A stretch of DNA of 64,000 nucleotides from positions 1 to 64,000 of the IMG/VR virus record IMGVR_UViG_3300043353_000042. One strand, given 5' to 3'. A model generated the notes under the pieces. That model saw only the letters and a program-made list of their open reading frames with translations. It was not told where the DNA came from and searched no databases. This document shows, one piece after another, positions 3,997 to 57,664 of the stretch (within the stretch, counting starts at the first letter, position 1; each line of letters opens with the position of its first letter). Source of the DNA: a virus. A program made the translations under genes and the position numbers.

Positions 3997-5475
3997 TTGC
4001 CTGTGGCCGTCAAGCTGACCATCTCGAACCGGTTCGTGCACGTGGACGGCGTCGACCTAAAGACGCTGCGCGCGCTCGACGCGGCGTGCTCCTACCGCGT
4101 GGCGGGCTACTGGTTTTCCCCCGCCTACAAGTCGCGGCGATGGGACGGCAAAGAGCACCTTTTCAAGTTCACGCAGAAGAAGGGCTATCACGCGCCGGCT
4201 GGCATGGCCGAAGACATCGCGCGCGTGCTCAAGAAGCGCGGCGTCGACTACCGCGTGAAGTTCGAGACGGGCTTCCACAGCGAGCGCCAGCGCTTCACGT
4301 GGTCGAAGTCGGTCGAGCTCCGGGACTACCAGCGCGAAGCCGTGCGCGGGCTCCTGACCGGTGTCGTGCCCGGGCGTGGCGTGCTGAAGATGCCGATCCG
4401 TTCAGGGAAGACCAAGGTGGTCGCGCGCGCTTTGTACGAGATCGGACGACGCGCGCTCTTCGTCGTGCCGTCTCGGTGGCTTCTGCATCAGACGATCGCG
4501 AGCTTGCACGAGTGCATGCCTGACGCACCGATCGGTCAGATCGGTGACGGCGTGTACGACGTGCAGTTCTTCACGGTCGCGACGATCCAGACGCTCGCGA
4601 CGATGGCGCCTGTGCGTAAGACGGCGCGCAAAGCAGGGCGCGAAGCGCATCCCGACTACGCGACGCTGATGACGAGCTTCGACGTCGGCGTGTTCGACGA
4701 AGCGCATCACGTGCGCGGTGAAGGCGATTGGTATCGCGTCTTCGTCGACCTCGACGCGCGCTTCAAGATTGGCGTGTCGGCAACGGTGTTCTTCGACAAC
4801 ACCAAAGAGCAAGAGTCAGGGATCATCTGGCTGCGCGGTACGTGCGGCGGCATTCGCTACGAGGTGTCGGCCTCGCGGCTGATCAAGGCGGGCTACTTGC
4901 TTCCGCAGCACGTGAAGATGTTCCGCGTGCACGAACCTGACGACGTGCGCAGCGCGCGCTACAGCGCGACGCTCAAGAAGAAGTGCATCACGGAGAACGC
5001 GCATCGCAACGTCATGATCGCGCGCATCGTGCGCGACTACGCGCCGCGTAAGACCATCATCATCGCGCGCGAGCACGCGCACATCAAAGCGATCTGCGAC
5101 GCGCTCGAAGAGCTCGACGTGCGCTTCAGGGTGCTGACTGGCAAGACGCCACACGATCAGCGCATGGACTACGTCGACGAGTTCACGGGCAAGGGCGACC
5201 TGCACGTGCTCGTCGGCAACGTGCTCGGTGAAGGCGTCGACATCCCGGACGTCGAGATCGTCGTGAACGCGGAAGGCGGCAAGGACGAAAAGCAGACGTG
5301 GCAGCGCCAGCGCAATCTGACAATCGTCGAAGGCAGCACGAAGGTTCCCGAGCTCGTCGACTTCTACGACTGCATGTCGAGCGTCTTCGAGAAGCACAGC
5401 AAGGCCCGGCTGAAGGTGTACCGGTCGGAGTCGGAGTTCAGCGCAGAGGTGCTCGAATGTTCCGCCGACGATTAG
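3997..5475 (+). CDS. superfamily-2 DEAD/DEAH-type helicase (type III restriction Res-like)
   Basis: Walker A PIRSGKTKV, motif II FDEAHH, motif III SAT, C-terminal helicase block VLVGNVLGEGVDIPDVEIVV. TTG start. Confidence 0.85.
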   Translation: MPVAVKLTISNRFVHVDGVDLKTLRALDAACSYRVAGYWFSPAYKSRRWDGKEHLFKFTQKKGYHAPAGMAEDIARVLKKRGVDYRVKFETGFHSERQRFTWSKSVELRDYQREAVRGLLTGVVPGRGVLKMPIRSGKTKVVARALYEIGRRALFVVPSRWLLHQTIASLHECMPDAPIGQIGDGVYDVQFFTVATIQTLATMAPVRKTARKAGREAHPDYATLMTSFDVGVFDEAHHVRGEGDWYRVFVDLDARFKIGVSATVFFDNTKEQESGIIWLRGTCGGIRYEVSASRLIKAGYLLPQHVKMFRVHEPDDVRSARYSATLKKKCITENAHRNVMIARIVRDYAPRKTIIIAREHAHIKAICDALEELDVRFRVLTGKTPHDQRMDYVDEFTGKGDLHVLVGNVLGEGVDIPDVEIVVNAEGGKDEKQTWQRQRNLTIVEGSTKVPELVDFYDCMSSVFEKHSKARLKVYRSESEFSAEVLECSADD

Positions 5476-21529: not shown

Positions 21530-22176
21530 GCGAACAGACCGAATACGTCGAACGCTTCGCGCGCCAGCGGATCAAGGTGCAAGGCACGGTCGTCGATGTG
21601 TACATCATCGGCGACGGGGCCGAGCTTCCGATCGGTGCCGACCTGTCGGAAGAGATGGATCGCGTGTCGGCACAGCTCGCGTATTGGGGTTCGGTCGCAG
21701 CCGATGCACAGGCCGAGCTGACGCAGGTCGACGCGTGGTATCGGCGTTTTCGCGCGCAGACCTCGACCGAGATGCTGACCAGAGATCCGAAGGCGTCCGA
21801 GTGGAAGGTGCGCAACGCTGTCGAGGGCTCGGACGGCTTCATCAAGCACAAGGACGCTATCGCGCTGGCCGAGAAGAATCTCGGCGTGTGCGAGGCCATG
21901 GTGCGCGCGTTCGAGAAGAAAGCGAATCAGCTGCAGAGCAGGGGCGCGCGCGTGCGCTCGGAACTGAACTCGCAAGGCATGACGACGCCCGAGACGCCGC
22001 GCGAGGTCCGCGGCTGGAATCTCTCGGCGCGTGGCAGCGAGAAGGACGACGACGGGTATGTGTCAGCACCATCGGACGGGGTTCGGCGGCCGTCCACTGC
22101 AGACAAGATTCGCCGCATGGAAGAAATCAACGGTGCGCGCCCCAAAGGCAAGGCATCACGCAGCAAGGAGAGGTGA
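21526..22176 (+). CDS. hypothetical coiled-coil protein
   Basis: 216-aa ORF, ATGA-coupled to the HU-like gene. Sits between HU and SSB-like genes. Confidence 0.5.
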   Translation: MSEQTEYVERFARQRIKVQGTVVDVYIIGDGAELPIGADLSEEMDRVSAQLAYWGSVAADAQAELTQVDAWYRRFRAQTSTEMLTRDPKASEWKVRNAVEGSDGFIKHKDAIALAEKNLGVCEAMVRAFEKKANQLQSRGARVRSELNSQGMTTPETPREVRGWNLSARGSEKDDDGYVSAPSDGVRRPSTADKIRRMEEINGARPKGKASRSKER

Positions 22177-22181
22177 CTAGC

Positions 22182-23918
22182 ATGGGCGTCAACATGGATG
22201 CGATGCGCAAGGGCTACGACGAGCAACAGCGCAGCGGCGGCGACTATCTGAACTTCGAGGCAGGCGAAACGCTCTTGTACGTGCACCCGCCCTGTCGCGA
22301 CAACGACAAGAGCGCGCTGACCAAGGGCAAGAACTACGTCCCGGTCACGGTGCACTACGGCGTCGGCAAGAACAATCGCATGGTGATCGGGCTCGATCCC
22401 GAGACGAACCCGGTCGTCGAACACCCGTTCGTCGTGAAGGTGCTCGAAAAGCGTAAGGTGCAGCTCACGGGCAAGTGCCCGATGAAGAAAGCGCTCGACT
22501 CCGGAAAGACGTTTTCGGACGAAGAAGCCGACGAGTCGCGACCACAGACAAAGTATCTTTGGGGCGTGACGCCGATGGGCTTCCGCAAGAAGTCATCAAG
22601 CGATTGGCAGGAGCACGAGAAGCAGGGCGAGCCCACTGTCGCGATGGTCGGCAAGCAGATCTTCGACGGCATCATGGAGTGCTTTTTCGACAACGGCGAC
22701 ATCAGCGATCCGCGTGCCGCAGTGCTGATCCGTGTCGTCAAGACGGGCAAGAAGCGGCAGACGAAGTACGAAGTCAAAGTCGATCCTGAAACGGCGAAGG
22801 CGCCGCGCAAGCTGCCGAAGGCGGTGCGCGCTGCGATCGCGAAGGCGATGACAGAAGGCGGCGACTGCGATCTGTTTCGGGTCGTTGGAAACATGATCAA
22901 GTCGCCCGACGAGGTGACGGCGATCATCAAGGGCGTCGAGGTTGACGAAGACGGCGACGACGACACGGGAAAGGGCAAGAGCATGGGCAAGAGCGCCAAG
23001 AGCAAGGGCAAGAGCAAGGTCGACGACGACGAAGACGAGGTCGACGACGAAGAAGAGCTCGACGACGAAGACGAACTCGACGACGAAGACGACGACGAAG
23101 ACGACGACGAGCCGAAGGCCAAATCGAAAGACAAGGCCAAGGGCAAGAAGTCGGACGACGAAGACGACGACGAAGACGACGAAGACGACCTCGACGAAGA
23201 CGACGAAGACGACGACGAAGACGACGAGCCGAAGGCCAAATCGAAAGACAAGGCCAAGGGCAAGAAGTCGAAGTCGGATGAAGACGACGACGACGAAGAC
23301 GACGACGAAGAGGCCGACGACGACGACGAAGACGAAGACGACGAAGACGACGACGAAGAACCGAAGGCCAAGTCGAAAGACAAGGCCAAGGGCAAGAAGT
23401 CGAAGTCGGATGAAGACGACGACGAAGACGACGAAGACGAAGAGGCCGACGACGACGAAGACGACGAAGACGACGAGCCGAAAGCCAAGTCGAAGAAGAG
23501 CGACAAGGACAAGGCCGCCGCCAAGGGCAAAAAGTCGAAGTCGGATGAAGACGACGAAGACGAAGACGAAGAGGCCGACGAAGACGACGAAGACGACGAC
23601 GACGAAGACGACGACGAGCCCCCTGCGAAAGCGAAGAAGGGCGGCAAAGACAAAGCCGCTGCGAAGAAGGCCAAGGGCAAGAAGTCGGACGACGACGACG
23701 ATCTGGGCCTCGACGACCTCGATGAAGCACTCGCCGGGCTCGATGGCGACGACGAAGATGATGAAGAAACGCCCGCCCCGAAAAAGGGCGACAAGGGCAA
23801 GAAGAGCGAGGCCAAAGTGAAAGACAAAGGCAAAGCCGAGAAGGTCGAGGCCAAGTCGAAAGACAAGGGCAAGGCCAAGGCGAAAGACACGAAGCCCGCG
23901 AAGAAGGGCAAGAAGTAG
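22182..23918 (+). CDS. gp32-like ssDNA-binding protein candidate with ~330-aa poly-acidic/Lys-rich repeat tail
   Basis: ATG 22182 inside ORF 21684..23918, preceded by AGGAGAGG. N-terminal ~250 aa resemble an OB-fold SSB pattern. Tail has 5 units of D/E runs plus PKAKSKDKAKGKKSKS. Confidence 0.5.
   Translation: MGVNMDAMRKGYDEQQRSGGDYLNFEAGETLLYVHPPCRDNDKSALTKGKNYVPVTVHYGVGKNNRMVIGLDPETNPVVEHPFVVKVLEKRKVQLTGKCPMKKALDSGKTFSDEEADESRPQTKYLWGVTPMGFRKKSSSDWQEHEKQGEPTVAMVGKQIFDGIMECFFDNGDISDPRAAVLIRVVKTGKKRQTKYEVKVDPETAKAPRKLPKAVRAAIAKAMTEGGDCDLFRVVGNMIKSPDEVTAIIKGVEVDEDGDDDTGKGKSMGKSAKSKGKSKVDDDEDEVDDEEELDDEDELDDEDDDEDDDEPKAKSKDKAKGKKSDDEDDDEDDEDDLDEDDEDDDEDDEPKAKSKDKAKGKKSKSDEDDDDEDDDEEADDDDEDEDDEDDDEEPKAKSKDKAKGKKSKSDEDDDEDDEDEEADDDEDDEDDEPKAKSKKSDKDKAAAKGKKSKSDEDDEDEDEEADEDDEDDDDEDDDEPPAKAKKGGKDKAAAKKAKGKKSDDDDDLGLDDLDEALAGLDGDDEDDEETPAPKKGDKGKKSEAKVKDKGKAEKVEAKSKDKGKAKAKDTKPAKKGKK
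23095..23700 (+). repeat. coding tandem repeat, period ~117-141 bp, 5 units
   Basis: GAGCCGAAGGCCAA(A/G)TCGAAAGACAAGGCCAAGGGCAAGAAGTCG recurs at 23109, 23226, 23358; diverged copies at 23475 and 23616. Units separated by GAC/GAA runs. Confidence 0.9.
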
Positions 23919-24000
23919 TAGGTAGTTCCGCAGTGCTCTGTTGACCCTCGAACGATGTCGGGAACCGGGGCCGAGCCAGTACGGGCGGCCCCTTTCTTTT

Positions 24001-33780: not shown

Positions 33781-34623
33781 ATGTCTGTGAAGCGTGGGAC
33801 CTTGTTTAGGTTCGATCCGGACGAGCTTATCGTCATCGGACTCGATACAAAGGACGGCCCGGAGCACGAATTGTGGGATGAACGGATTCATCTTCCGCTT
33901 GAAGAGTCGATGGTGATGAACATCATGACGTTTGGCGTGAAAGAGACGGTCACACTCCGTAAGGGGTCAAAGGGATACGAGGTCGTCAATGGTCGGCGTC
34001 GTGTTCTTCACGCTCGCGAGGCGAATAAGCGCCTCAAGAAGACGGGCGAACCACGTGTGCGCGTCCCTGCGACCGTCGAGTCGGGCGACGAAATGCACAT
34101 GGAAAAGCTCACAATTTCGCTAAATGAGATTCGGCGCGACGACGACACGCTCACAAAGGCCGAGAAGTGCATGCGACTGCTTCATCGCAACGGCGGAGAC
34201 TACAAGGACGCAGCCCTCGTCTTCGGAGTGTCGGTCGCGGCGATCAAGAATTGGGCCAAGGTCGCCGAGCTAACTCCGAAGGTGAAGAAGGCCGTAGCGG
34301 CGGGCGAGATAAGTGCTTCGGCGGCGGCGGAGCTTCACGGGCTCGATAAGGACGACCAGATCGCCAAGCTTGACAAGCTCGTCGGCAACGCCAAGGCAAG
34401 CGGACGGAAGAAGACCACGGTATCGAAGGTCAAAAAGGAGACGGGCCATCGGGTCACCGTGTCGAAGCGCGTGCTGTTGAAGATTGTCACCGATCAACAG
34501 CTGGCGACGAGCGTTCATGCAGAGATGCTCTCTGGGATAAAGCTCGCGCTGGGCGTGTACGTCCCGCCCGAGACAACGAAGCTCGGAAAGCTCCTGATAC
34601 AGGCGGGATTCAAGTACGACTGA
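33781..34623 (+). CDS. ParB/KorB-like DNA-binding protein, paralog 1
   Basis: ParB N-terminal arginine patch VVNGRRRVLHAREA. HTH-like VFGVSVAAIKNWAK. Confidence 0.75.
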   Translation: MSVKRGTLFRFDPDELIVIGLDTKDGPEHELWDERIHLPLEESMVMNIMTFGVKETVTLRKGSKGYEVVNGRRRVLHAREANKRLKKTGEPRVRVPATVESGDEMHMEKLTISLNEIRRDDDTLTKAEKCMRLLHRNGGDYKDAALVFGVSVAAIKNWAKVAELTPKVKKAVAAGEISASAAAELHGLDKDDQIAKLDKLVGNAKASGRKKTTVSKVKKETGHRVTVSKRVLLKIVTDQQLATSVHAEMLSGIKLALGVYVPPETTKLGKLLIQAGFKYD

Positions 34624-35999: not shown

Positions 36000-36133
36000 A
36001 CCAAAGCAGACCAACCGCGGAAAGTTTCTTCCGAGTCTGGCTTGCGAAATCTCGATCTTCGGGCCATCGATAAGCCTTGTGGCGCGTAACCTAGCCCGCA
36101 CACACGATGGAAGAACCCGAGGAGTCGGTAATC

Positions 36134-36994
36134 ATGGCAGCTGCAATTATGCCGGTAAAACGTGGAAATCTGTATCAGTTCGATCCCAACGAGCCAGTGA
36201 TTGTCGGACTCGACACAAAGGACGGGCCCGAACACGAGCTTTGGGACGAGCGGATCCGGCTGCCGCTCGAAGAATCCATGGTGCTAAACATCATGGCGGT
36301 CGGCGTCAAAGAGACTGTGATCTTGCGCCTCAACAAGGGGGCCTCGCGTTACGAGGTCGTCGACGGCCGTGGTCGCATTCGCCACGCTCGCGAGGCGAAT
36401 AAGCGCCTAAAGAAGCTAGGCGAAGAGCTCGTGTATGTGCCGGCGCTTCTCGAACAGGGCGACGAAACGCACATGGCCGGGCTCGCGATCTCGCTGAATG
36501 AGATTCGACGCGACGACGACACGCTCACAAAGGCCGAGAAGTGCATGCGGCTCTTGCAGCGCAATGGCGGCGATCACAAGGCCGCGGCGATCGTCTTCGG
36601 CGTGTCGGTCGCGGCGATCAAGAATTGGGCCAAGGTTGCCGAGCTGACGCCGAAGGTCAAGCGAGCGGTCGCGAACGGCGAGATCAGCGCGTCAGCGGCG
36701 GCCGAGCTGCACGGACTCGAAAAGGAGGCGCAGATCGCCAAGCTCGATAAGCTCGTCGGGCACGCCAAGGCGAACGGGCGCAAGAAGGCGACCACGGCGA
36801 GCGCGAAGAAGGAGACGGGCAAGCGTACCGCGGTGCCGAAGCGCGTCTTGCTGAAGCTCGTAGGCGACGAAGAGCTGTCTTCGGGCGTGCCGCCTGAAGT
36901 CATTTTCGGGATCAAGCTCGCGCTCGGCTCACACCTGCCCGGGGAAACGTCGAAACTTGGAAAGTTGCTTGTGCAGGCGGGTTTCAAATACTAG
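36134..36994 (+). CDS. ParB/KorB-like DNA-binding protein, paralog 2
   Basis: Largely collinear with paralog 1, with long identical DNA stretches. Arginine patch altered to VVDGRGRIRHAREA. GGAG lies 8 nt before ATG 36134. Confidence 0.75.
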   Translation: MAAAIMPVKRGNLYQFDPNEPVIVGLDTKDGPEHELWDERIRLPLEESMVLNIMAVGVKETVILRLNKGASRYEVVDGRGRIRHAREANKRLKKLGEELVYVPALLEQGDETHMAGLAISLNEIRRDDDTLTKAEKCMRLLQRNGGDHKAAAIVFGVSVAAIKNWAKVAELTPKVKRAVANGEISASAAAELHGLEKEAQIAKLDKLVGHAKANGRKKATTASAKKETGKRTAVPKRVLLKLVGDEELSSGVPPEVIFGIKLALGSHLPGETSKLGKLLVQAGFKY

Positions 36995-37136: not shown

Positions 37137-38060
37137 ATGACGACCACAACGCGCTTTCGCCCCATGCTCGCGCCGTCCAAGTCGATCGATCCGGCCACGC
37201 TGACCTACCCCGTTTTCGCGAGTCCCAAGTACGACGGGATCCGCTGCGTCATACGCGACGGGCGCGCCATGTCCCGGTCGCTCAAGCCGATCCCGAACAA
37301 GCACATACGTGGCGCGCTCGAAGCCCTCGGACCGGACGCGGAGGGCCTCGACGGGGAAATCATGCTGCCGTATCCGGCGAAGTTCCCCGCGGTCAGTAGC
37401 GCGGTCATGGCGTTCGACATGCCGCCCCCTGCAGACTGGTTTTTCGTCGTGTTCGATCGCGTGCCTTTGCTCGCGACCGAGCCGTTTTCGTCGCGCTCGA
37501 ACGACGTCAAGCGCACCGTCGAAAAGCACGCATGGCCGCACATCGTCGTGTGTGAACAGCTATGGATCGACGCGCGCGAAACGCTCGACGACTACGAGGC
37601 GAAGGCGGTCGAGGCCGGGCACGAAGGGGTCATGTTGCGCGCGTTCAATGGCCCCTACAAGTTCGGGCGGGCCACGGAGCGGGAAGGGTACCTGTTCAAG
37701 CTGAAGCGCTTCACAGACAGCGAGGCAGAGATCGTCGGTGTGCTCGAAATGCAGCACAACAACAACGTGGCCTTCGTCGGCGAGCTCGGACAGACGAAGC
37801 GGCGCACGCTGAAGGAAGGCAAGGTCGACGGCGGCGTGATGGGCAAGCTCGTCGTGCGCGACCTGAAGAGCGGCGTCGAGTTCAAGATCGGCACGGGCTT
37901 CGACGCGAAGCAGCGCGCGCTCTGGTGGCGCTGTCGCGACATCCTAATCGGCCGGGTCGTGCGCTACCGCTATCAGGAGCACGGCCAGAAGGACAAGCCG
38001 AGGATCGCGAGCTTCCAAGGCTTCCGAGATCGGCGCGACATGGGTCCGGTCGGCGAGTGA
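37137..38060 (+). CDS. ATP-dependent DNA ligase
   Basis: Adenylation motif I SPKYDGIRC (KxDG), motif IV EGVMLR, motif V LFKLKRF. OB-fold C-terminus. Confidence 0.85.
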   Translation: MTTTTRFRPMLAPSKSIDPATLTYPVFASPKYDGIRCVIRDGRAMSRSLKPIPNKHIRGALEALGPDAEGLDGEIMLPYPAKFPAVSSAVMAFDMPPPADWFFVVFDRVPLLATEPFSSRSNDVKRTVEKHAWPHIVVCEQLWIDARETLDDYEAKAVEAGHEGVMLRAFNGPYKFGRATEREGYLFKLKRFTDSEAEIVGVLEMQHNNNVAFVGELGQTKRRTLKEGKVDGGVMGKLVVRDLKSGVEFKIGTGFDAKQRALWWRCRDILIGRVVRYRYQEHGQKDKPRIASFQGFRDRRDMGPVGE

Positions 38061-38226
38061 CTTGGCACGATTCTCCGGCCCCGGGCTGCCCGGTAGGGAC
38101 GCCCAGATAGCTAGCGTTTGGCGCGTACGCTGGACGCGTACATTCGCGCTAAATAATGCTCGAAAAGTTGTTGCGTTGAAGCGAAACGATGCTAATCTAT
38201 ATCTTGTCAGCAACGAACAACGGAGC
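38058..38226 (+). repeat. long repeat LR1 (stop codon, hairpin, GCGTAC palindromes, A/T patch, promoter, leader)
   Basis: About 169 bp, near-identical to 39652-39820. First ~130 bp also match 41625-41754. Begins at the TGA of the ligase gene. Confidence 0.9.
38162..38198 (+). promoter_or_regulatory. promoter cassette class I (P4)
   Basis: GAAAAGTTGTTGCGTTGAAGCGAAACGATGCTAATCT. Leader ATATCTTGTCAGCAACGAACAACGGAGC. Confidence 0.6.
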
Positions 38227-38232
38227 AATCGG

Positions 38233-38412
38233 GTGAACACAAGCGCGCATCGGTACTGGCTACTAACTGCTGACAACAAGGTCTTTTTGACCGCAAGCAC
38301 GCTCGAATGGGCTCGCCGCAAGGTGGCCGCGTTCGCCTTCTGCGCAGCGCTCCGGATCGAAGATCGCGACTGCACAGAACGCCTTGAAGAACGCGGAATC
38401 GTCGTAGTCTGA
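38233..38412 (+). CDS. hypothetical small protein
   Basis: GTG 38233, 8 nt after GGAGC in the conserved leader. 59 aa. Confidence 0.4.
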   Translation: MNTSAHRYWLLTADNKVFLTASTLEWARRKVAAFAFCAALRIEDRDCTERLEERGIVVV

Positions 38413-38432
38413 ACGGCGAACGGAAGTCGCTT

Positions 38433-38738
38433 TCAGAACCAGATGTATTCCTTTTCAGGGTCGCCGCCCGGTCGGCGGCGGCCCGACCCGATGTGCTTAT
38501 GCCAGCCTTCGTGCGGATCGCCTTTGCCGTCCCACAGCACAGCGGCACACAGACAGATGGCCAAATTGGGGTAGCAGTAGGCGTCGTGATAGTCGTCGGC
38601 GCCCACGTTGCCGATGCACAGGCGCACATTGAACATCTGTGGGACGACGGTCACTTCGTAGCCGTCTTCAAGTTCGCGGGCATACAAGATGCCAGGTCGT
38701 GGATTCAACGTACCGGGGTTCGTGTCGGTGTCGCTCAT
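38433..38738 (-). CDS. hypothetical protein (lone minus-strand gene in a plus-strand block)
   Basis: 101-aa ORF of normal composition, convergent with 38233..38412. Confidence 0.5.
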   Translation of the reverse strand: MSDTDTNPGTLNPRPGILYARELEDGYEVTVVPQMFNVRLCIGNVGADDYHDAYCYPNLAICLCAAVLWDGKGDPHEGWHKHIGSGRRRPGGDPEKEYIWF

Positions 38739-38779
38739 GGCGCCGCACGATAGCCGGCAAGGGTAGGATAGGGGAAGTC

Positions 38780-38974
38780 ATGAAGCAGGTTCGTAAGTTC
38801 GTTTCGCTCACAGTGGTTCGCGTCAGGCTCCGATTGGCCGATCTCTTGCTCGACGGCCTAGTTGCGGCCTTCGGTGAGTCGTGGCCGACGGTCATGCAAC
38901 GCGCGTTTATCGAGATGGAACGCAAAAATGCGGGCCTATCCGATGGCTTGAGCGTGGCGCCCGAGGCCAACTAA
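38780..38974 (+). CDS. hypothetical small protein
   Basis: ATG 38780 within ORF 38639..38974. 64 aa. Confidence 0.4.
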   Translation: MKQVRKFVSLTVVRVRLRLADLLLDGLVAAFGESWPTVMQRAFIEMERKNAGLSDGLSVAPEAN

Positions 38975-38975
38975 A

Positions 38976-39011
38976 GAAAGTTGTTGCGTTGAAGCGAACG
39001 CCTGCTAGTCT
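38976..39011 (+). promoter_or_regulatory. promoter cassette class I (P5)
   Basis: GAAAGTTGTTGCGTTGAAGCGAACGCCTGCTAGTCT. Followed by a ~150-nt leader carrying two structured elements. Confidence 0.6.
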
Positions 39012-39017
39012 GTCAGT

Positions 39018-39080
39018 TGTCGGAAGCGAAATGGCAGCGGCGGCCCGCACAGGAGCCCAATGCATGCAGCGCTTCCGACA
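39018..39080 (+). promoter_or_regulatory. 5'-leader RNA element copy A (11-bp closing stem, 38-nt invariant core)
   Basis: TGTCGGAAGCG (39018-39028) pairs with CGCTTCCGACA (39070-39080). Core AATGGCAGCGGCGGCCCGCACAGGAGCCCAATGCATGC at 39030-39067. Confidence 0.6.
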
Positions 39081-39137
39081 GCGACCGGGAATGGCAGCGG
39101 CGGCCCGCACAGGAGCCCAATGCATGCGCCCGGTCGC
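39081..39137 (+). promoter_or_regulatory. 5'-leader RNA element copy B (9-bp closing stem, same core)
   Basis: GCGACCGGG (39081-39089) pairs with CCCGGTCGC (39129-39137). Identical core at 39090-39127. Confidence 0.6.
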
Positions 39138-39169
39138 CTCGCGGCTGCACGACAGGAGAACAGACGAAG

Positions 39170-39457
39170 ATGACGCTCGAAGCACAAGCGACGGCCTTCT
39201 GTGAGGCGCTCAATGCGCGCTCGAACGCGCTCGCGGTCAAGCTCGGTCGCAAGCCGACCTACCGTAACTTTGGGTTCGAGCTCGGTCGCAAGTACGCGCG
39301 GATCTTTTGGTCGACCGACAGTGGTCAGAGGTCAGCGCTCGCGTTCGTCGACGCCGACGGCGTCGTGCGTCGTTCGGATAGCTGGAAAGCGGCCGGGCGC
39401 ATCCTAGGCCAACGTGACGCCGAAGCGGTCATCGCGCTCGTAGTCGGCCCGGTATGA
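39170..39457 (+). CDS. hypothetical protein
   Basis: ATG 39170 preceded by AGGAG. 95 aa. Confidence 0.5.
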   Translation: MTLEAQATAFCEALNARSNALAVKLGRKPTYRNFGFELGRKYARIFWSTDSGQRSALAFVDADGVVRRSDSWKAAGRILGQRDAEAVIALVVGPV

Positions 39458-39464
39458 TCCGGGC

Positions 39465-39653
39465 ATGGCCTGGAAGATCATCGAGATCGGGCTCGCGCGG
39501 GCGATGCTAGGGCTCGGGTGCCTCGGAAGCGTCGCGACGGTAGTCTGGGTCGTTGAGCGCGAGCTTCGGCGTCGTGCGCGCCTACGTCGCGATCGCGAGT
39601 GGTATCGCGCGCCCCCGAAAAGGCTGCCCAATCCCAAGAAGTGGCTGAACTGA
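39465..39653 (+). CDS. small membrane protein
   Basis: 62 aa. Hydrophobic LGLGCLGSVATVVWVV followed by an Arg-rich tail. Confidence 0.45.
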   Translation: MAWKIIEIGLARAMLGLGCLGSVATVVWVVERELRRRARLRRDREWYRAPPKRLPNPKKWLN

Positions 39654-39820
39654 CTTGGCACGATTCTCCGGGCCCGGGCTGCCCGGGGACGATGCCCAGA
39701 TAGCTAGCGTTTGGCGCGTACGCTGGATGCGTACATTCGCGCTAAATAATGCTCGAAAAGTTGTTGCGTTGAAGCGAAACGGTGCTAATCTATATCTTGT
39801 CAGCAACGAACAACGGAGCA
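39652..39820 (+). repeat. long repeat LR2
   Basis: Starts at the TGA of 39465..39653. Differs from LR1 at a few positions, e.g. CCCGGGCTGCCCGGGG versus CCGGGCTGCCCGGTAGGG. Confidence 0.9.
39755..39791 (+). promoter_or_regulatory. promoter cassette class I (P6)
   Basis: GAAAAGTTGTTGCGTTGAAGCGAAACGGTGCTAATCT. Confidence 0.6.
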
Positions 39821-39825
39821 CGGAA

Positions 39826-40080
39826 ATGGCGAGCGCGGTCGAGGCAATGGGCGAAGTGTACGGTTACTTGAACGATGGCAACGTCGCGGGCGCGCAAGCC
39901 GCGGTGTGCGCAATCGAGTCCGAAAGCAGCGCGCTTCCGAGCTGCGTATTCGAGCGCGTGCTTCGGGACGCGGTCAAGGCGGGTTGCCTCCTGCCCTTCT
40001 ATGCCGACTTCTGCGAGCGCGCTTACGGTCGCAAGGCGTTCGCGGGCATGCTCGCCGGGCTGACCGCACAAGCGGCCTGA
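39826..40080 (+). CDS. hypothetical protein
   Basis: ATG 39826 after leader GGAGCACGGAA. 84 aa. Confidence 0.5.
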   Translation: MASAVEAMGEVYGYLNDGNVAGAQAAVCAIESESSALPSCVFERVLRDAVKAGCLLPFYADFCERAYGRKAFAGMLAGLTAQAA

Positions 40081-40158
40081 AACAGGCGCACAGGCGCGAG
40101 CCAACGGGCCCGGGATCGCCTACACAGCGTCCGGGCTTTTCTGCATGTGCGACCGCTA

Positions 40159-40194
40159 GAAAGTTGTTGCGTTGAAGCGAACGGCTGCTAGTAT
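40159..40194 (+). promoter_or_regulatory. promoter cassette class I (P7), leaderless type
   Basis: GAAAGTTGTTGCGTTGAAGCGAACGGCTGCTAGTAT, then ATGGGT, then ATG 40201. Confidence 0.6.
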
Positions 40195-40200
40195 ATGGGT

Positions 40201-40440
40201 ATGGCAATCGACAAGACGACGCCCTACACGGTTCACGGCGTGCTCGCAGGCGCCTACGCGCGCGACATCAGCGCGACCAAGCTGCTGACGCATGCCTCGC
40301 AGGATGAAAGCGCGACGGCGGTGTGCAAGAAGGTCAAACAGTACAATCTGTGCGACATGGTCGAAGACGGCCCGGTCACGTGCCCGGTATGCCTACAGCG
40401 GATCGCGGCCCGTGGCCTGACGCGCAAAGTGTGCGAGTAA
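40201..40440 (+). CDS. hypothetical protein with CPVC motif
   Basis: ATG lies 6 nt after the -10-like hexamer. An in-frame ATG at 40195 is also possible. Confidence 0.5.
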   Translation: MAIDKTTPYTVHGVLAGAYARDISATKLLTHASQDESATAVCKKVKQYNLCDMVEDGPVTCPVCLQRIAARGLTRKVCE

Positions 40441-40449
40441 AGTACGGTC

Positions 40450-40486
40450 GAAAAGTTGTTGCGTTGAAGCGAAACCGCGTTAGAGT
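40450..40486 (+). promoter_or_regulatory. promoter cassette class I (P8), leaderless type
   Basis: GAAAAGTTGTTGCGTTGAAGCGAAACCGCGTTAGAGT, then ATACAC, then ATG 40493. Confidence 0.6.
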
Positions 40487-40492
40487 ATACAC

Positions 40493-40858
40493 ATGACGAC
40501 GACGAACAAAGTAGGCGACAGCGTAGTGTGCAACGGCCACCTTGGCACGATCAGTGCCGTGACCGATTACGGCATGGTCGAAGTGCAGCTCGAAGGCGGC
40601 ACGGTGTGCGTTGACCCGAGCGACTTGCAGCCGGGCAGCGTGTGGGACGTGATGGTCAAGTGCGCGCGTTCGGACATGCGGCTTGCGCGCAAGGAGGGCT
40701 CGATCCTGATTGCGCAGACACGTCGCGGCACGGTCGAGCTCACCTACAGCGAACGCGCCTACGAGATCAACGTCGACGGTCGTGGCGTCGGTCGTGCGTC
40801 GACGGTGAAAGCCGCTGAAGCCATGATCGCGCCCCTGTACCAGGTCGAGATCGGCTGA
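40493..40858 (+). CDS. hypothetical protein
   Basis: 121-aa ORF starting 6 nt after the P8 hexamer. Confidence 0.55.
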   Translation: MTTTNKVGDSVVCNGHLGTISAVTDYGMVEVQLEGGTVCVDPSDLQPGSVWDVMVKCARSDMRLARKEGSILIAQTRRGTVELTYSERAYEINVDGRGVGRASTVKAAEAMIAPLYQVEIG

Positions 40859-40905
40859 TACCGTCCCGCCAAGTCGGCGGAACGATTGAGCAAAGGGTGA
40901 TCGAT

Positions 40906-40942
40906 AAAAAGTTGTTGCGTTGAAGCGAAAGGCTGCTAGTCT
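40906..40942 (+). promoter_or_regulatory. promoter cassette class I (P9)
   Basis: AAAAAGTTGTTGCGTTGAAGCGAAAGGCTGCTAGTCT. Leader carries RNA element copy C. Confidence 0.6.
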
Positions 40943-40950
40943 GTGATGTG

Positions 40951-41009
40951 TCGGACGGGGAATGGCAGCGGCGGCCCGCACAGGAGCCCAATGCATGCGC
41001 CCCGTCGGA
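40951..41009 (+). promoter_or_regulatory. 5'-leader RNA element copy C (7+2-bp closing stem, same core)
   Basis: GACGGGG (40954-40960) pairs with CCCCGTC (41000-41006). Identical core at 40961-40998. Confidence 0.55.
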
Positions 41010-41038
41010 GCGAGCGGAAAGCAACTTCAGGGTAGAAG

Positions 41039-41398
41039 ATGGCATCGAAGAAGAAAGAAACCACAGACCTAAGCGTGAAGATCCTTGCCGGGATCCGCGC
41101 TGACCTGAACGCCACACGTGACGAACTCAAGCGCACAGGCGATGCGCTTCGCGCGGAGGTCGCACAGGTGAGTGAGCGGTTCGAACGGAGCGAGCATCGT
41201 CAGACAGACGCCGATGTGCGCGTCGCAACCGAGCTGACCGAGCTTGCAGGCGCGACGCACACTCTGATCGATGCGATCAAGTCGCTCGGCGCGGACATGC
41301 GCGAAGTCAAAGCGATCGTGTCGGACATTCGCGACGATCGTGCGCGCATGAACGCGCTCGAAGCTCGCATACAGCGCCTCGAAGCGAAGGCATCGTGA
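41039..41398 (+). CDS. coiled-coil protein
   Basis: 119-aa ORF with heptad-like Leu/Ala/Arg/Glu composition. Confidence 0.5.
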   Translation: MASKKKETTDLSVKILAGIRADLNATRDELKRTGDALRAEVAQVSERFERSEHRQTDADVRVATELTELAGATHTLIDAIKSLGADMREVKAIVSDIRDDRARMNALEARIQRLEAKAS

Positions 41399-41429
41399 CC
41401 GAGCGTGTGCCACGGAGTAGGGTGTCGGG

Positions 41430-41627
41430 ATGAAAGACGACAGGCAAGGCATCCGTGTGCCCGGTACGGACTTGGTGACCTACGGCTTTTCAGAGGCAGA
41501 GGTCTTATCGTGGCGTGCATGGACGTGCGAAAAGCACCGCGCTCACGGCTTCGATGCGAATCCAAATTCGCTCGGCTGTCCGTTCTGCGCACAGGAGGCG
41601 CGTACGCCGCCGCTGATCGGCGAGTGA
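41430..41627 (+). CDS. small protein with CPFC motif
   Basis: 65-aa ORF. Its stop TGA is the first base triplet of LR3. Confidence 0.45.
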   Translation: MKDDRQGIRVPGTDLVTYGFSEAEVLSWRAWTCEKHRAHGFDANPNSLGCPFCAQEARTPPLIGE

Positions 41628-41765
41628 CTTGGCACGATTCTCCGGCCCCGGGCTGCCCGGTAGGGACGCCCAGATAGCTAGCGTTTGGCGCGTACGCTGG
41701 ACGCGTACATTCGCGCTAAATAATGCTCGAAAAGTTGTTGCGTTGAAGCGAAACCCTGCTATTGT
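41625..41765 (+). repeat. long repeat LR3
   Basis: Identical to LR1 through GAAGCGAAAC, then diverges into a leaderless-type -10 region. Confidence 0.9.
41729..41765 (+). promoter_or_regulatory. promoter cassette class I (P10), leaderless type
   Basis: GAAAAGTTGTTGCGTTGAAGCGAAACCCTGCTATTGT, then ATGGGT, then ATG 41772. Confidence 0.6.
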
Positions 41766-41771
41766 ATGGGT

Positions 41772-42005
41772 ATGACGACGACGAGCACGGTTGACGCGAT
41801 TCGCAACAGCTACAAGGCGCTCATGACCGCGTGCCTGAAGAACCACAGCGACAAGCCCGCGGACTTCAACCGGAAAGTAGAAGGCCTGATGCATGAACTT
41901 GCGGACGGCGAACCGTACGAGATGACTGCGAAGTTCTACCTCCGCGCCGCTCAAGAAGTCGCCTACTACCAATATAACGTGAACTTCCGCAACGTTAGCT
42001 TGTGA
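41772..42005 (+). CDS. hypothetical protein
   Basis: ATG 6 nt after the hexamer. Alternative in-frame ATG at 41766. Confidence 0.5.
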   Translation: MTTTSTVDAIRNSYKALMTACLKNHSDKPADFNRKVEGLMHELADGEPYEMTAKFYLRAAQEVAYYQYNVNFRNVSL

Positions 42006-42034
42006 CCGGGGCCGTGCCAAACAGAGGAACGAAG

Positions 42035-42322
42035 ATGACGAACGCAGCTAAGACCATGAAACCGACCGAGATTTTCTACCTGTGCCGCAAGGGCGCGCCG
42101 GGTAGCGCTATGAAGCTCGATCGCGAGCCTACGGCGGCCGACCTTGAGTGCCTCGCGACGGCCGGGTTAGAGCTCGCAACCATCGGAGATTGCTTCAAAA
42201 AGACGATACGGTGCCCGGTCAATGGGGACGGCTACTGGTATACGCGCCGTGAGTTGCTCGACAGCGCTGGCGAGTGCGTAGGCTCGTTCGAGGTCGAGCA
42301 AGGCCCGCGCGGCGAGCTGTGA
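42035..42322 (+). CDS. hypothetical protein
   Basis: ATG 42035 preceded by GAGGAACGAAG. 95 aa. Confidence 0.5.
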   Translation: MTNAAKTMKPTEIFYLCRKGAPGSAMKLDREPTAADLECLATAGLELATIGDCFKKTIRCPVNGDGYWYTRRELLDSAGECVGSFEVEQGPRGEL

Positions 42323-42540
42323 TGCCCGCTGGCGCTCGCTGGCGCCCCTAGCCGGGCCGCTGACGCTCCTGCCCCTGCGCGCGCCCTGTGGTGTCCTGCG
42401 CACGGGCCCTGCGAGCGCTGGCGACCCTCGCCGATCGGCCCTCGCCGATCTGGCCCGCGCCGCTCGAACCCCGCGCCGTTCGACCCGCGCCGATACATGT
42501 GGGCTGTGTGCGCCTGCAGTGCGACCCGAAAAGCGTGCTC
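42323..42540. repeat. very GC-rich non-coding patch made of short tandem duplications
   Basis: GCTGGCGCTC/GCTGGCGCCC; CCCTCGCCGATCGG/CCCTCGCCGATCTGG; CCGCGCCGCTCGAA/CCCCGCGCCGTTCGA/CCCGCGCCGAT. Confidence 0.7.
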
Positions 42541-42577
42541 GAAAAGTTGTTGCGTTGAAGCGAAACGGCGCTAGGAT
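42541..42577 (+). promoter_or_regulatory. promoter cassette class I (P11), leaderless type
   Basis: GAAAAGTTGTTGCGTTGAAGCGAAACGGCGCTAGGAT, then ATGCCC, then ATG 42584. Confidence 0.6.
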
Positions 42578-42583
42578 ATGCCC

Positions 42584-42961
42584 ATGCACAACGGTTACCG
42601 ATTCGCGCAACTAAGCATCGGCGAGAGTCTGACGAGCCCTACCGTGTGCGAGTGCTGCGAGCGCGAGGATCTCAAGCGCACCGTCAAGCTCGTGAGCCCC
42701 GAAGGTCGTGCCGTGTGGTTCGGTACCGGTTGTGCGGCGCGCGCCATGGGCATCGCGCCGAAGCTCGTGCGCGCCGCTAAGCGGGACGCCGAAGCGACCG
42801 CGGTAGCCGAGCAAGATGCGATCGTGCGCGCGCAACGTGCGAGCGTTGACGCGGCTTGGCAAGCGTTCCTCGACGCAACGGCCGGAGTAGGCGAGCGGTT
42901 CAGCCAAATCGAGCGACTAGGCGGCTACAAGGTCGCGCGCGCACTGTTCGAAAAACGCTGA
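42584..42961 (+). CDS. hypothetical protein (CECC motif; C-terminal WQAFLD...GERF.QIERLGG module)
   Basis: ATG 6 nt after the hexamer. C-terminus resembles the product of 58159..58335 (-). Confidence 0.55.
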   Translation: MHNGYRFAQLSIGESLTSPTVCECCEREDLKRTVKLVSPEGRAVWFGTGCAARAMGIAPKLVRAAKRDAEATAVAEQDAIVRAQRASVDAAWQAFLDATAGVGERFSQIERLGGYKVARALFEKR

Positions 42962-42996
42962 TCTGAGTGCATCCGGAACTCTTACGCACGACTAGC

Positions 42997-43034
42997 GAAA
43001 AAGCTGTTGCGTTGAAGCGAAACGCTGCTAGTCT
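42997..43034 (+). promoter_or_regulatory. promoter cassette class I (P12)
   Basis: GAAAAAGCTGTTGCGTTGAAGCGAAACGCTGCTAGTCT. Leader GTGAGTTGTCAGCAACGC...CCGGAGCAAACGAAC then ATG. Confidence 0.6.
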
Positions 43035-43075
43035 GTGAGTTGTCAGCAACGCATCGCACTCCGGAGCAAACGAAC

Positions 43076-43444
43076 ATGACCAACCTCGCAGCCATCATCG
43101 TCGAAACCTTCACCATGGGCACGCTCACAGGCGATGTGTTCGTCGAACTACAAAACATCTTTCAGAACGTCGCGTCCGACATGGGCGCTACCTCAATCTC
43201 GCACATCAGCGTGCGCGCCCTGCAGATCCTCACGGATCGGGGCTTCGTGCAGACCTCGTACGACTACAAGGGCCATGCCAACGGCGTCATTCCGAGCGAG
43301 CGCGCGCAGGCGTACATGTATCTTGAGCTCGCGAGCGGCGGTCGCTGCATGGAGCCGCGCGACGCTTTCGACGCTCGCTTAGTCGTGCGTCGCCCGATGT
43401 GGTGCGAAGGAGCGAGCGGCCTAGGCGTGTCGGCGAGCGCCTGA
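43076..43444 (+). CDS. hypothetical protein
   Basis: ATG 43076 after GGAGCAAACGAAC. 122 aa. Confidence 0.55.
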   Translation: MTNLAAIIVETFTMGTLTGDVFVELQNIFQNVASDMGATSISHISVRALQILTDRGFVQTSYDYKGHANGVIPSERAQAYMYLELASGGRCMEPRDAFDARLVVRRPMWCEGASGLGVSASA

Positions 43445-43458
43445 TCGGCGAGTGAAAC

Positions 43459-43476
43459 CGGGCCCTTCGGGGCCCG
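43459..43476 (+). terminator. GC hairpin with TTCG loop
   Basis: CGGGCCC-TTCG-GGGCCCG, 7-bp stem, 15 nt after the stop at 43444. No T-tract. Confidence 0.45.
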
Positions 43477-43489
43477 CATCACGTCTAGT

Positions 43490-43527
43490 GAAAAAGTTGT
43501 TGCGTTGAAGCGAACCGGTGCTAGTCT
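43490..43527 (+). promoter_or_regulatory. promoter cassette class I (P13)
   Basis: GAAAAAGTTGTTGCGTTGAAGCGAACCGGTGCTAGTCT. Leader GTGAGTTGTCGGAAGCGAAACACGGAGCAAACGAAG then ATG. Confidence 0.6.
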
Positions 43528-43563
43528 GTGAGTTGTCGGAAGCGAAACACGGAGCAAACGAAG

Positions 43564-43800
43564 ATGACCTCGAACAACACCGCGACGAACGCACAGAGCA
43601 ACCTTCGCGCACCCTTCGCGGTGAGCGAGTCCGGCCGCTGGCACACGGCCGACGGTATCGAGGTGTGCGAGGGCCCGGCATGGCACGGCCGCTCGCCTGC
43701 GCGCCGCTACGTGGCGCAGCGTCTGATCGGTGGCCGCTGCGCATGGGGCGCGACCCGCGAAGCCGCTGCCGACGCTGTGCGCGCCTTGGCGGCCGAGTGA
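43564..43800 (+). CDS. hypothetical protein
   Basis: ATG 43564 after GGAGCAAACGAAG. 78 aa. Confidence 0.5.
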   Translation: MTSNNTATNAQSNLRAPFAVSESGRWHTADGIEVCEGPAWHGRSPARRYVAQRLIGGRCAWGATREAAADAVRALAAE

Positions 43801-43841
43801 AGCGCGCTTACCATGCGCGCTAACTGTGGAGGCGGAGCCCG

Positions 43842-44114
43842 ATGAAGACCGACATTGAAGAAGCAATTGCTACCGTACGCGATTGGCAATACGACGACGA
43901 CATCATGGTCGGTGACGCAGCCGTAGTGCTGTCAGCGGAGGTTGTCGCCTGTCATGCCGTCATGGCGCAGCTCTCGGCGTCCCTCACGAACTTGTGTGCG
44001 GCGGCCGAGAACTACCGCGATAGTGATTGTTCGCGCCAGCCTACAAGGGAGCTGAACGCCGCGCTTGCGGCGAGCCGGGCGATCGTGCCTGTGGCGCGCC
44101 CCTTGGTCGAATGA
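43842..44114 (+). CDS. hypothetical protein
   Basis: 90-aa ORF preceded by GGAGGCGGAG. Confidence 0.5.
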   Translation: MKTDIEEAIATVRDWQYDDDIMVGDAAVVLSAEVVACHAVMAQLSASLTNLCAAAENYRDSDCSRQPTRELNAALAASRAIVPVARPLVE

Positions 44115-44159
44115 TCGAGCGAGTTCAAGGAAGTACCGCGCATCGGCAAGAAAGTTGTT

Positions 44160-44195
44160 GCGTTGAAGCGAAACGCTGCTAGTCTTTACTTTGTC
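44160..44195 (+). promoter_or_regulatory. promoter cassette class I (P14)
   Basis: GAAAGTTGTTGCGTTGAAGCGAAACGCTGCTAGTCT. Leader TTACTTTGTCAGCAACGCAGCCCCGGAG. Confidence 0.6.
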
Positions 44196-44222
44196 AGCAA
44201 CGCAGCCCCGGAGTAACCGACC

Positions 44223-44603
44223 ATGACCATGAAGACCGACATCGCGATTACGGACATCATCAGCAAGACCGCCAAGCTTATCGCGAGCTTGCCGAACCAT
44301 GTGACGATGTCGGACTCGCGCGCGATGGCCTTCGGCGACACGTCGAGCGCTCTTACGCTGTGCGCGCTGTATCTCGCGGACTTCGTGACCACGAACGACA
44401 AAGCAGCGGCGCGCAAGTATCTTGCGATGGCGGTCAAGGTTTCGGACGCTGTGAGCTCGCTTGCGGCCTTCCGTGGCCGTGAATCGAAGGTCGTAGGCGA
44501 CACGCTCGTGATGGCGCAGCGCTCGCTTGTCGAGGCGCACAAGCTCTTTCAGGCGCATATCGACGCGCTCTTGAGCGCTTCGCGCGCGACGGTTCAGGCC
44601 TGA
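44223..44603 (+). CDS. hypothetical protein
   Basis: 126-aa ORF. GGAG lies 9 nt upstream of the ATG. Confidence 0.5.
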   Translation: MTMKTDIAITDIISKTAKLIASLPNHVTMSDSRAMAFGDTSSALTLCALYLADFVTTNDKAAARKYLAMAVKVSDAVSSLAAFRGRESKVVGDTLVMAQRSLVEAHKLFQAHIDALLSASRATVQA

Positions 44604-57626: not shown

Positions 57627-57664
57627 AAACTAGCATGCGTTCGCTTCAACGCAACAACTTTTTG
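57627..57664 (-). promoter_or_regulatory. promoter cassette class I on minus strand (M1), leaderless type
   Basis: Minus-strand reading: AAAAAGTTGTTGCGTTGAAGCGAACGCATGCTAGTTT, then ATTAGC, then ATG. Confidence 0.6.

Follow-up and report, generated by a model that had tools for sequence, protein, structure and literature searches.

A leader RNA element with a freely varying closing helix and a near-invariant apical hairpin in early mRNAs of uncultured soil phages

We analyzed a 64,000-nt stretch of viral DNA (positions 1 to 64,000 of IMG/VR record IMGVR_UViG_3300043353_000042, hereafter the window) and found that an element repeated in its early region represents a new RNA family, though its kind is familiar, namely a cis-acting structured leader of phage early mRNAs. 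The element is 52-72 nt long and consists of a closing helix (P1) of 7-17 bp, the sequence of which is free, around a near-invariant apical core. A first-pass annotation of the window had described a 38-nt core at three positions, each copy bracketed by an inverted repeat of different sequence, and both observations were confirmed. The 38-mer AATGGCAGCGGCGGCCCGCACAGGAGCCCAATGCATGC has exactly three copies on the + strand (39030-39067, 39090-39127 and 40961-40998), and the three inverted repeats named in the annotation were all found. No further match to the 38-mer was obtained in the window at up to 3 mismatches, and none was obtained in 100 shuffles. With filters off, a covariance-model search of the entire window yielded no element copies beyond these three.

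The first copy (W1, 39016-39082, + strand) has P1 arms at 39016-39028 and 39070-39082, formed by the 13-bp inverted repeat GTTGTCGGAAGCG/CGCTTCCGACAGC, and an apical core at 39029-39069; its minimum free energy (MFE) is -37.1 kcal/mol (z = -5.0) and it scores 63.6 bits with the covariance model. The second copy (W2, 39081-39137, + strand) abuts W1, with P1 arms at 39081-39089 and 39129-39137 (inverted repeat GCGACCGGG/CCCGGTCGC, 9 bp), a core at 39090-39128 and a score of 75.2 bits. The W2 stem sequence GACCGGG is also kept by the orthologous copies L105, L106_2 and L111_2 from related phages (contigs and loci of relatives are given here by L numbers). In the third copy (W3, 40951-41009, + strand; 76.5 bits), the core P1 occupies 40954-40960 and 41000-41006 and encloses an apical core at 40961-40999; its 7-bp inverted repeat, GACGGGG/CCCCGTC, can be extended to 40951 and 41009 with one G.G mismatch. 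The W1 core has one more A on each side, and the conserved unit is 39-41 nt rather than 38 nt.

Related copies were collected in three steps. A scan of IMG/VR for the promoter block that precedes the element (described below) gave three related contigs, two of them with variant element copies. A 20-nt core pattern searched against 241 million metagenome records gave 94 stretches, among which L019, L051, L053 and L068 are real and the remainder are chance matches in coding DNA. Homologues of DUF7717, the protein encoded 3' of W1 and W2, led to 11 more contigs. In total, 22 distinct element copies were obtained, 19 of which made up the first covariation set, and only one copy, L068c (L068, 8858-8909; 45 bits), is clearly divergent.

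The inner seven pairs of P1 are paired in 99.2% of cases over the 19 copies (97-99% over 19-22 copies), and compensatory changes, in which both sides change, are present in all seven. The covariation score of P1 was 0.971, against 0.285 +/- 0.046 for shuffled data (0 of 500 shuffles reached the observed value), and controls in which the pairing partner was slid along the alignment gave at most 0.14; the result also holds on the 22 copies. Thus, the covarying closing helix claimed in the first-pass annotation stands on the 19-22 copies from related phages, the three copies of the window being by themselves weak evidence of covariation. Over the whole P1 stems, we counted 199 Watson-Crick pairs, 13 G.U, 1 A.C and 1 other, and the 13 G.U pairs versus a single A.C identify the + strand RNA as the species that folds. 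The MFE of the whole element ranges from -23 to -42 kcal/mol. P1 is under purely structural selection. The extent of pairing, the compensatory changes at all seven inner pairs and the wobbles in the + sense together support the earlier proposal of a functional structured RNA in these 5' leaders.

The centre of the element had been described as an invariant loop. Its invariance was upheld, but it is not an unstructured loop: both RNAalifold and the single-sequence MFEs give an irregular hairpin, ending in a GC(A/U)CA pentaloop, with the GCUCA variant in 4 copies. The 21-mer GGCAGCGGCGGCCCGCACAGG is identical in 17 of the 22 copies, and the other five have 1-4 differences from it, whereas the stems around it have been wholly replaced and the adjacent protein is only 62-85% identical. 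A 21-mer frozen amid such turnover of the stems points to sequence-specific selection, as expected for a recognition surface.

Two pairing registers fit the apical core (numbering follows the columns of alignments A2/A6, with the core at A6 columns 12-46). In register A, an internal loop at the base (AAAG opposite G) is followed by G12-C46, C13-G45, a weak A14-U44 and a bulge; the middle comprises G15-C41, C16-G40 and the invariant G17.U39, then an internal loop with GC opposite NNA; and the top is formed by G20-C35 (U35, hence G.U, in 7 copies), G21-C34, C22-G33, a variable bulge at column 32, C23-G31, C24-G30 and the pentaloop. Register D pairs columns 12-41, 13-40 and 14-39, then 17-35, 18-34, 19-33 and 20-32; it is 96.8% paired, equal to register A, and shares with it only C23-G31, C24-G30 and the pentaloop. 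Since the core is nearly invariant, L068c is the sole copy informative about the register. It changes 15-41 and 21-34 from G-C to A-U, which gives two compensatory pairs in register A (matched in 9 of 500 shuffles), and register D survives the same changes through wobble pairs. As both registers fit, the exact apical pairing is ambiguous. The C22G change in L002 is absorbed by a bulge shift. The GGC repeats (GGCAGCGGCGGCC) permit the two mutually exclusive registers, and every substitution in L068c keeps both; this two-register core could be a bistable RNA or a coincidence. The first apical model, a GGCA/UGCC plus GCGG/CCGC hairpin, was rejected, because L068c breaks it with no compensatory change. 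A 10-nt identity of the core (GGCCCGCACA) with the 930 region of 16S rRNA is within chance and has a different structural context.

As had been annotated, the copies lie 3' of a repeated promoter and 5' of the open reading frames (ORFs) 39170-39457 and 41039-41398. The promoter follows the pattern AAGTTGTTGCGTTGAAGCGAA-N7-TANNNT, with 13 + strand copies between 34718 and 44172 (34.7-44.2 kb), and one reverse copy of the block is present at 57640-57660 (-). The early promoter of the tandem W1/W2 (38978-39011, + strand) has the block AAGTTGTTGCGTTGAAGCGAA at 38978-38998 and a -10 sequence, TAGTCT, at 39006-39011, which places the predicted transcription start site (TSS) at about 39016-39019; that of W3 (40909-40942, + strand) has the block at 40909-40929 and TAGTCT at 40937-40942, with a predicted TSS at about 40948-40950. 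Four early genes have an ATG exactly 6 nt past the -10 (at 40201, 40493, 41772 and 42584), so these four mRNAs are apparently leaderless, and the TSS was calibrated accordingly as the 7th nucleotide after the -10. The ORF list begins two of these four genes at an upstream in-frame ATG that precedes the predicted TSS. The leaderless genes hint at a host in which leaderless translation is common, of an Actinobacteria-like kind. The block GCGTTGAAGCGAA persists in the more distant contig L068, in which the putative -35 differs, and may thus serve as a binding site for a factor instead of a -35 element.

In every element-bearing leader, P1 (that of the first copy, where there are two in tandem) begins 3-11 nt past the -10, and this leaves an unpaired 5' tail of 0-5 nt (median about 1; about 17 leaders, with the TSS predicted as above). 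The L068 leaders obey the same spacing between P1 and the transcript start with a different -10, and all 30 covariance-model hits point the same way as their promoters. P1 ends 10-48 nt upstream of the start codon and never takes in the Shine-Dalgarno (SD) sequence. Tandem pairs, with copies 0-1 nt apart, precede the DUF7717 gene in three lineages (the window, L106 and L111). An element-free leader at 43531 starts with the very sequence of the W1 5' arm, GTTGTCGGAAGCGAAA, and the generic short leader reads TTGTC..CGAACAACGGAG..ATG. From this match, the module looks like an insertion into, or a deletion from, a generic short leader.

Short units, each a promoter with its gene, make up the early region. 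A consensus scan of 38000-42700 for sigma-70 promoters and terminators gave no match, the terminator part being a simple scan for U-tailed structures with a loop of at most 8 nt. That scan overlooked a canonical intrinsic terminator at 40105-40145 (GGGCCCGGG...CCCGGGC followed by UUUUCU; loop of more than 8 nt), 3' of the gene ending at 40080. This terminator shows at least partial insulation between the early promoter-gene units.

The window is part of a 107.7-kb contig from a large phage of virulent type, which encodes a DnaE-type polymerase, DnaB, a primase, CobS/CobT-like proteins, SbcC, a ligase and ParB-like proteins. Searches of 50,697 phage records (the region by megablast and blastn, a 697-aa ORF by tblastn) identified no close relative, and there was no similarity to lambdoid or other phage records of INPHARED; the best DnaE match among cultured phages has 34% identity. 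The exact core gave no match in IMG/VR, where a degenerate scan added nothing, and two core patterns had no match in 185,579 bacterial and archaeal genomes, one per species. Phages with a DUF7717 protein at 47-51% identity (L114-L117) have other promoters and no element. A 15-bit match in L115 was rejected as due to chance, since it falls inside zinc-finger-like coding sequence. Given these scans and the element-free relatives at 47-51%, the element is restricted to a narrow clade of uncultured (soil) phages. The first-pass annotation could not place it in any known family, and the same outcome was obtained with Rfam 15 (4227 models, including riboswitches, ribozymes and phage motifs): the whole window had no match at the gathering score, and at E<=10 the region 38900-41100 gave only Cis52 (E = 1.4), which is unrelated and on the opposite strand inside ORF 39170-39457.

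The gene at 39170-39457 (+ strand), the first after the tandem elements, encodes DUF7717 (Pfam PF24835), a protein of 95 aa with a pI of 10. Its homologues have the element upstream in most related contigs. An AlphaFold2 (AF2) model with a mean predicted local distance difference test (pLDDT) value of 91.5 has an alpha/beta fold, with no structural match by Foldseek (best E = 0.6) and no sequence match in the Protein Data Bank (PDB). W3 is followed by a gene (41039-41398, + strand) for a 119-aa coiled-coil-like protein, here family B, homologues of which follow the element in L005, L053/L107, L068b and L106_3 and not in L101. Across phages, the element thus precedes different genes, those of DUF7717, of family B and, in L068c, of a third family, whose orthologue in the window (39827) has no element; it is also absent before some orthologues in L101 and L107. 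The element is a portable module. Three public gene calls for DUF7717 homologues (P0004, P0006 and P0014, at loci L004/L100 and L103) start at the AUG within the element, with N-termini such as MRLAVDS... and MQCGSLS...; the added residues show no conservation and probably reflect misannotation provoked by the element.

We tentatively prefer the reading that the element is a cis-acting leader module that would control the fate of early mRNAs post-transcriptionally, as a 5' clamp combined with a docking or cleavage site. P1 would make the 5' end of the mRNA double-stranded and in this way shield it against decay through RppH, RNase E and RNase J; 5' stem-loops do stabilise mRNA, and both RppH and RNase E require single-stranded 5' ends (PMC3997798). 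The invariant apical module would be the docking or cleavage site of a conserved trans-acting RNA-binding protein or of an RNase III-type enzyme. By setting stability and processing, this partner would determine how much is made from the few module-bearing early genes, and when; tandem copies would supply a second docking site. The invariance of the apex suggests that the partner is probably a conserved macromolecule encoded by the host. The helix of the element (P1 plus about 11 apical pairs, with internal loops) matches in length the substrates of bacterial RNase III, which typically have about two helical turns and internal loops (PMC1540722).

Known leader hairpins resemble the element in part. 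The signals R0.3 and R1.1 of phage T7 are processed by RNase III and are also repeated, related hairpins in the leaders of early transcripts. The early mRNA sites of SP82 are further RNase III processing signals. Like the element, such signals have about two turns and an asymmetric internal loop that splits a lower stem of free sequence from an upper stem, and this loop often confines cleavage to one strand (PMC1540722). The element differs from them in being at the 5' end of the transcript rather than between cistrons and in having an upper part that is invariant across divergent phages. The ompA and papA stabilisers share with it a stem-loop preceded by at most a few unpaired 5' nucleotides (for the element, on the predicted TSS); however, they need no conserved sequence, whereas about 40 nt of the element are nearly invariant and second copies are internal.

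Several points weigh against the combination of 5' clamp and docking site. A plain short hairpin would do for 5' protection and, as E. coli RNase III substrates are without positive sequence determinants (PMC1540722), the indifference of this enzyme to sequence means that neither role alone accounts for at least 21 invariant nucleotides. In tandem pairs, the second copy lies away from the 5' end. The analysis yielded no candidate partner, and DUF7717 has no recognisable RNA-binding fold. The transcript 5' ends are themselves predictions from sequence. Finally, an element similar to put or nut fits the anatomy about as well.

The put RNA of phage HK022 binds the beta' zinc-binding domain of RNA polymerase (RNAP) and suppresses pausing and termination without protein factors. 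It is an irregular stem-loop RNA that contacts RNAP directly, and it occurs in two copies per genome behind the early promoters, putL being located just 3' of PL and its RNA beginning at nt 3 of the transcript (PMC9378689). A nascent hairpin of the element might likewise bind RNAP, directly or, as lambda boxB does through N, via a small phage protein, and make it resistant to pauses and terminators, such that transcription from two or three early promoters would pass the many intergenic hairpins and reach genes further downstream; this is the chief rival reading, and we consider it unlikely, though by no means far-fetched. The element is similarly cis-acting, strongly conserved and present in few copies, its start at about +1 to +5 and its 2-3 loci per genome match put in position and number, and its irregular bulged stems, spaced by 0-1 nt when in tandem, recall the two adjacent put stems. 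An invariant apex suits RNAP or some other highly conserved partner in the host, the element is indifferent to the identity of the next gene and to the SD distance (about 10-48 nt), and co-directional intergenic hairpins do lie downstream, including the terminator at about 40105-40145. Nevertheless, nearly all of the early genes are served by separate promoters (13 in 9.5 kb), which makes the need for read-through uncertain, and the simple scan of 38000-42700 gave no U-tailed terminators. At about 70 nt, put combines two different stems with a triplex in one unit, whereas the element is one self-contained hairpin, single in most copies and only sometimes duplicated; the two have no sequence similarity, and the element belongs to an unrelated lineage of large DnaE-encoding soil phages. 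The likeness to lambda nut lies in a hairpin of the early leader with the gene of a small basic protein directly 3' of it, as for N after nutL, and in the GCACA pentaloop, which fits the boxB pattern GNR(N)A. However, the GCUCA of 4 copies violates this pattern, the element is four times the size of boxB (15 nt), and DUF7717 is a folded alpha/beta protein rather than an arginine-rich peptide. There is no boxA (CGCUCUUA-like) at up to 1 mismatch in 38000-44300, and the window-wide counts are below chance expectation. We regard as improbable the most novel form of this idea, a protein-independent put-like RNA that would reprogram host RNAP, or its variant, a bistable "register-shift" hairpin that would gate the fate of the early transcript; on that reading, the phage lineage and probably also the host phylum would be unrelated to those of lambdoid phages.

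The first-pass annotation had also offered a translational operator and a ligand-binding leader, and both fared poorly. Sequence-specific leader sites that serve several mRNAs as a small regulon are known for the MS2 and PP7 coat proteins and for T4 RegA and gp32 (PMC3014915), and DUF7717 might by analogy bind the apical module in the leader of its own gene and in a few other leaders and repress their translation. DUF7717 is a small protein with a pI of 10 and invariant blocks rich in Arg and Lys, and its gene is the one found most frequently next to the element (window, L004, L068a, L019/L102/L103, L104, L105, L106, L109 and L111), an association that is partly due to ascertainment, because many loci were fetched via DUF7717. 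We nonetheless judge such autogenous control quite improbable: phage operators overlap or abut the initiation region, whereas P1 of the element ends 10-48 nt 5' of the AUG and neither SD nor start codon is ever covered; DUF7717 genes without the element are present in L107/L108 and in all the relatives at 47-51%; and the confident AF2 model matches no RNA-binding fold. A riboswitch aptamer for a metabolite would also have a conserved core and a variable P1, and some riboswitches are in tandem, but 7-17 perfect, G+C-rich pairs and an element MFE of -23 to -42 kcal/mol are far too stable for switching. With the SD outside P1, no alternative terminator or anti-terminator in the scan of 38000-42700 and no Rfam match, an expression platform is absent, and we give this reading hardly any credence. 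A new small self-cleaving ribozyme, trimming the leader to a 5'-OH end or exposing the AUG as a leaderless start, would be in keeping with the architecture, as small ribozymes too have a highly conserved core (here about 40 nt, repeated in a phage genome) within a variable closing helix, and the phage does have many leaderless genes. Of 21 copies, 19 have the conserved AUG in frame 0 or -1 with respect to the gene; this bias is not significant given shared ancestry, and in L068c the AUG is followed directly by UAA. As the core is one irregular hairpin with neither a covarying pseudoknot nor a multi-helix junction, and no Rfam ribozyme matches at E<=10, self-cleavage appears very unlikely.

Early expression, multiple or tandem copies, invariant sequence and restriction to phages would also suit an RNA decoy or anti-defence mimic (a ToxI-like pseudo-antitoxin, a lone CRISPR repeat or an imitation of some host RNA) that titrates a host protein. 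Yet no host counterpart was found with two patterns in the 185,579 species genomes, a third pattern revealed no arrays among its matches in the 241 million metagenome records, the copies are not identical direct repeats, as their stems differ, and they are always located in an mRNA leader and in a single orientation; the chance of a decoy therefore seems to us very slight. As DNA, the 21-mer might conceivably serve, at +15 to +55, as a site for protein binding (an operator, or a cruciform, in the initially transcribed region), and AGG-N7-AUG in the core looks like a ribosome-binding site with a start codon, at which gene callers sometimes begin, so that a translated upstream ORF (uORF) might be supposed. 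Action as a DNA site only, which the first-pass annotation had named as one outcome that would overturn its proposal, is disfavoured by the covarying flanks, the strand-specific G.U pairs (13 versus 1) and the fixed orientation. The putative uORF would have 1-157 codons in frames distributed 10:2:9 with no conserved peptide, it is reduced to AUG-UAA in L068c, and both AGG and AUG are base-paired in register A, the better supported of the two registers; neither of these two readings is at all likely. Taken jointly, a new ribozyme, a decoy, a riboswitch, a DNA site and a uORF amount to no more than a rather small chance.

Other conserved features accompany the early units. A second small leader motif is found at 41015-41029 (+ strand; CGGAAAGCAACTTCA, consensus CGAAA(A)CAACUUUCA), between the element and the SD sequence of the family B gene, and the motif recurs 3' of the element in L002a/b (in L002 at about 4296-4312 and 5297-5313), L005, L053, L068b and L106_3. 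It is present in one class of leaders, could form a weak GAAA/UUUC hairpin and resembles the CGAACAACGGAG of the generic leader. A second conserved non-coding element, repeat D3, is present in the window at 38058-38227, 39651-39820 and 41625-41794 and in the relatives L053, L068 (three copies), L103, L106, L107, L111 and L113 (two copies). Each D3 block is intergenic, spans about 95 nt with 72-90% conservation across the relatives and has invariant TTGGCACGATTCTCCGG and AGATAGCTAGC around a variable G+C-rich hairpin. It lies just 5' of some early promoter copies and, in the window, after both element-bearing units; its TGGCAC resembles a sigma-54 -24 box, the GC of the -12 being missing. Elsewhere in the window, a 300-nt direct repeat with 80% identity (34004-34303 and 36378-36677) corresponds to two paralogous ParB-like genes (33781-34623 and 36107-36994). 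The AT skew reaches 0.515 at 22001-24000, as compared with about 0.0-0.15 elsewhere, inside ORF 21684-23918, which encodes a protein of 744 aa with a weak SSB-like match; this segment is compositionally odd and possibly repetitive.

Cis-acting RNAs on phage early transcripts, such as nut, put and the RNase III sites, are classic models of gene control. To our knowledge, only a handful of phage groups have yielded them, nearly all with enterobacteria or Bacillus as hosts. The element described here adds a statistically well-supported RNA family from uncultured soil phages, and the sharp contrast between its freely varying stem and at least 21 invariant nucleotides points to a specific, probably host-encoded partner. 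If it were a mere stabiliser hairpin, its interest would be modest. If it instead binds RNAP or directs a nuclease, it would extend these mechanisms to a new phage lineage, and this compact, portable unit of 52-72 nt might serve as a leader part for the control of gene expression.

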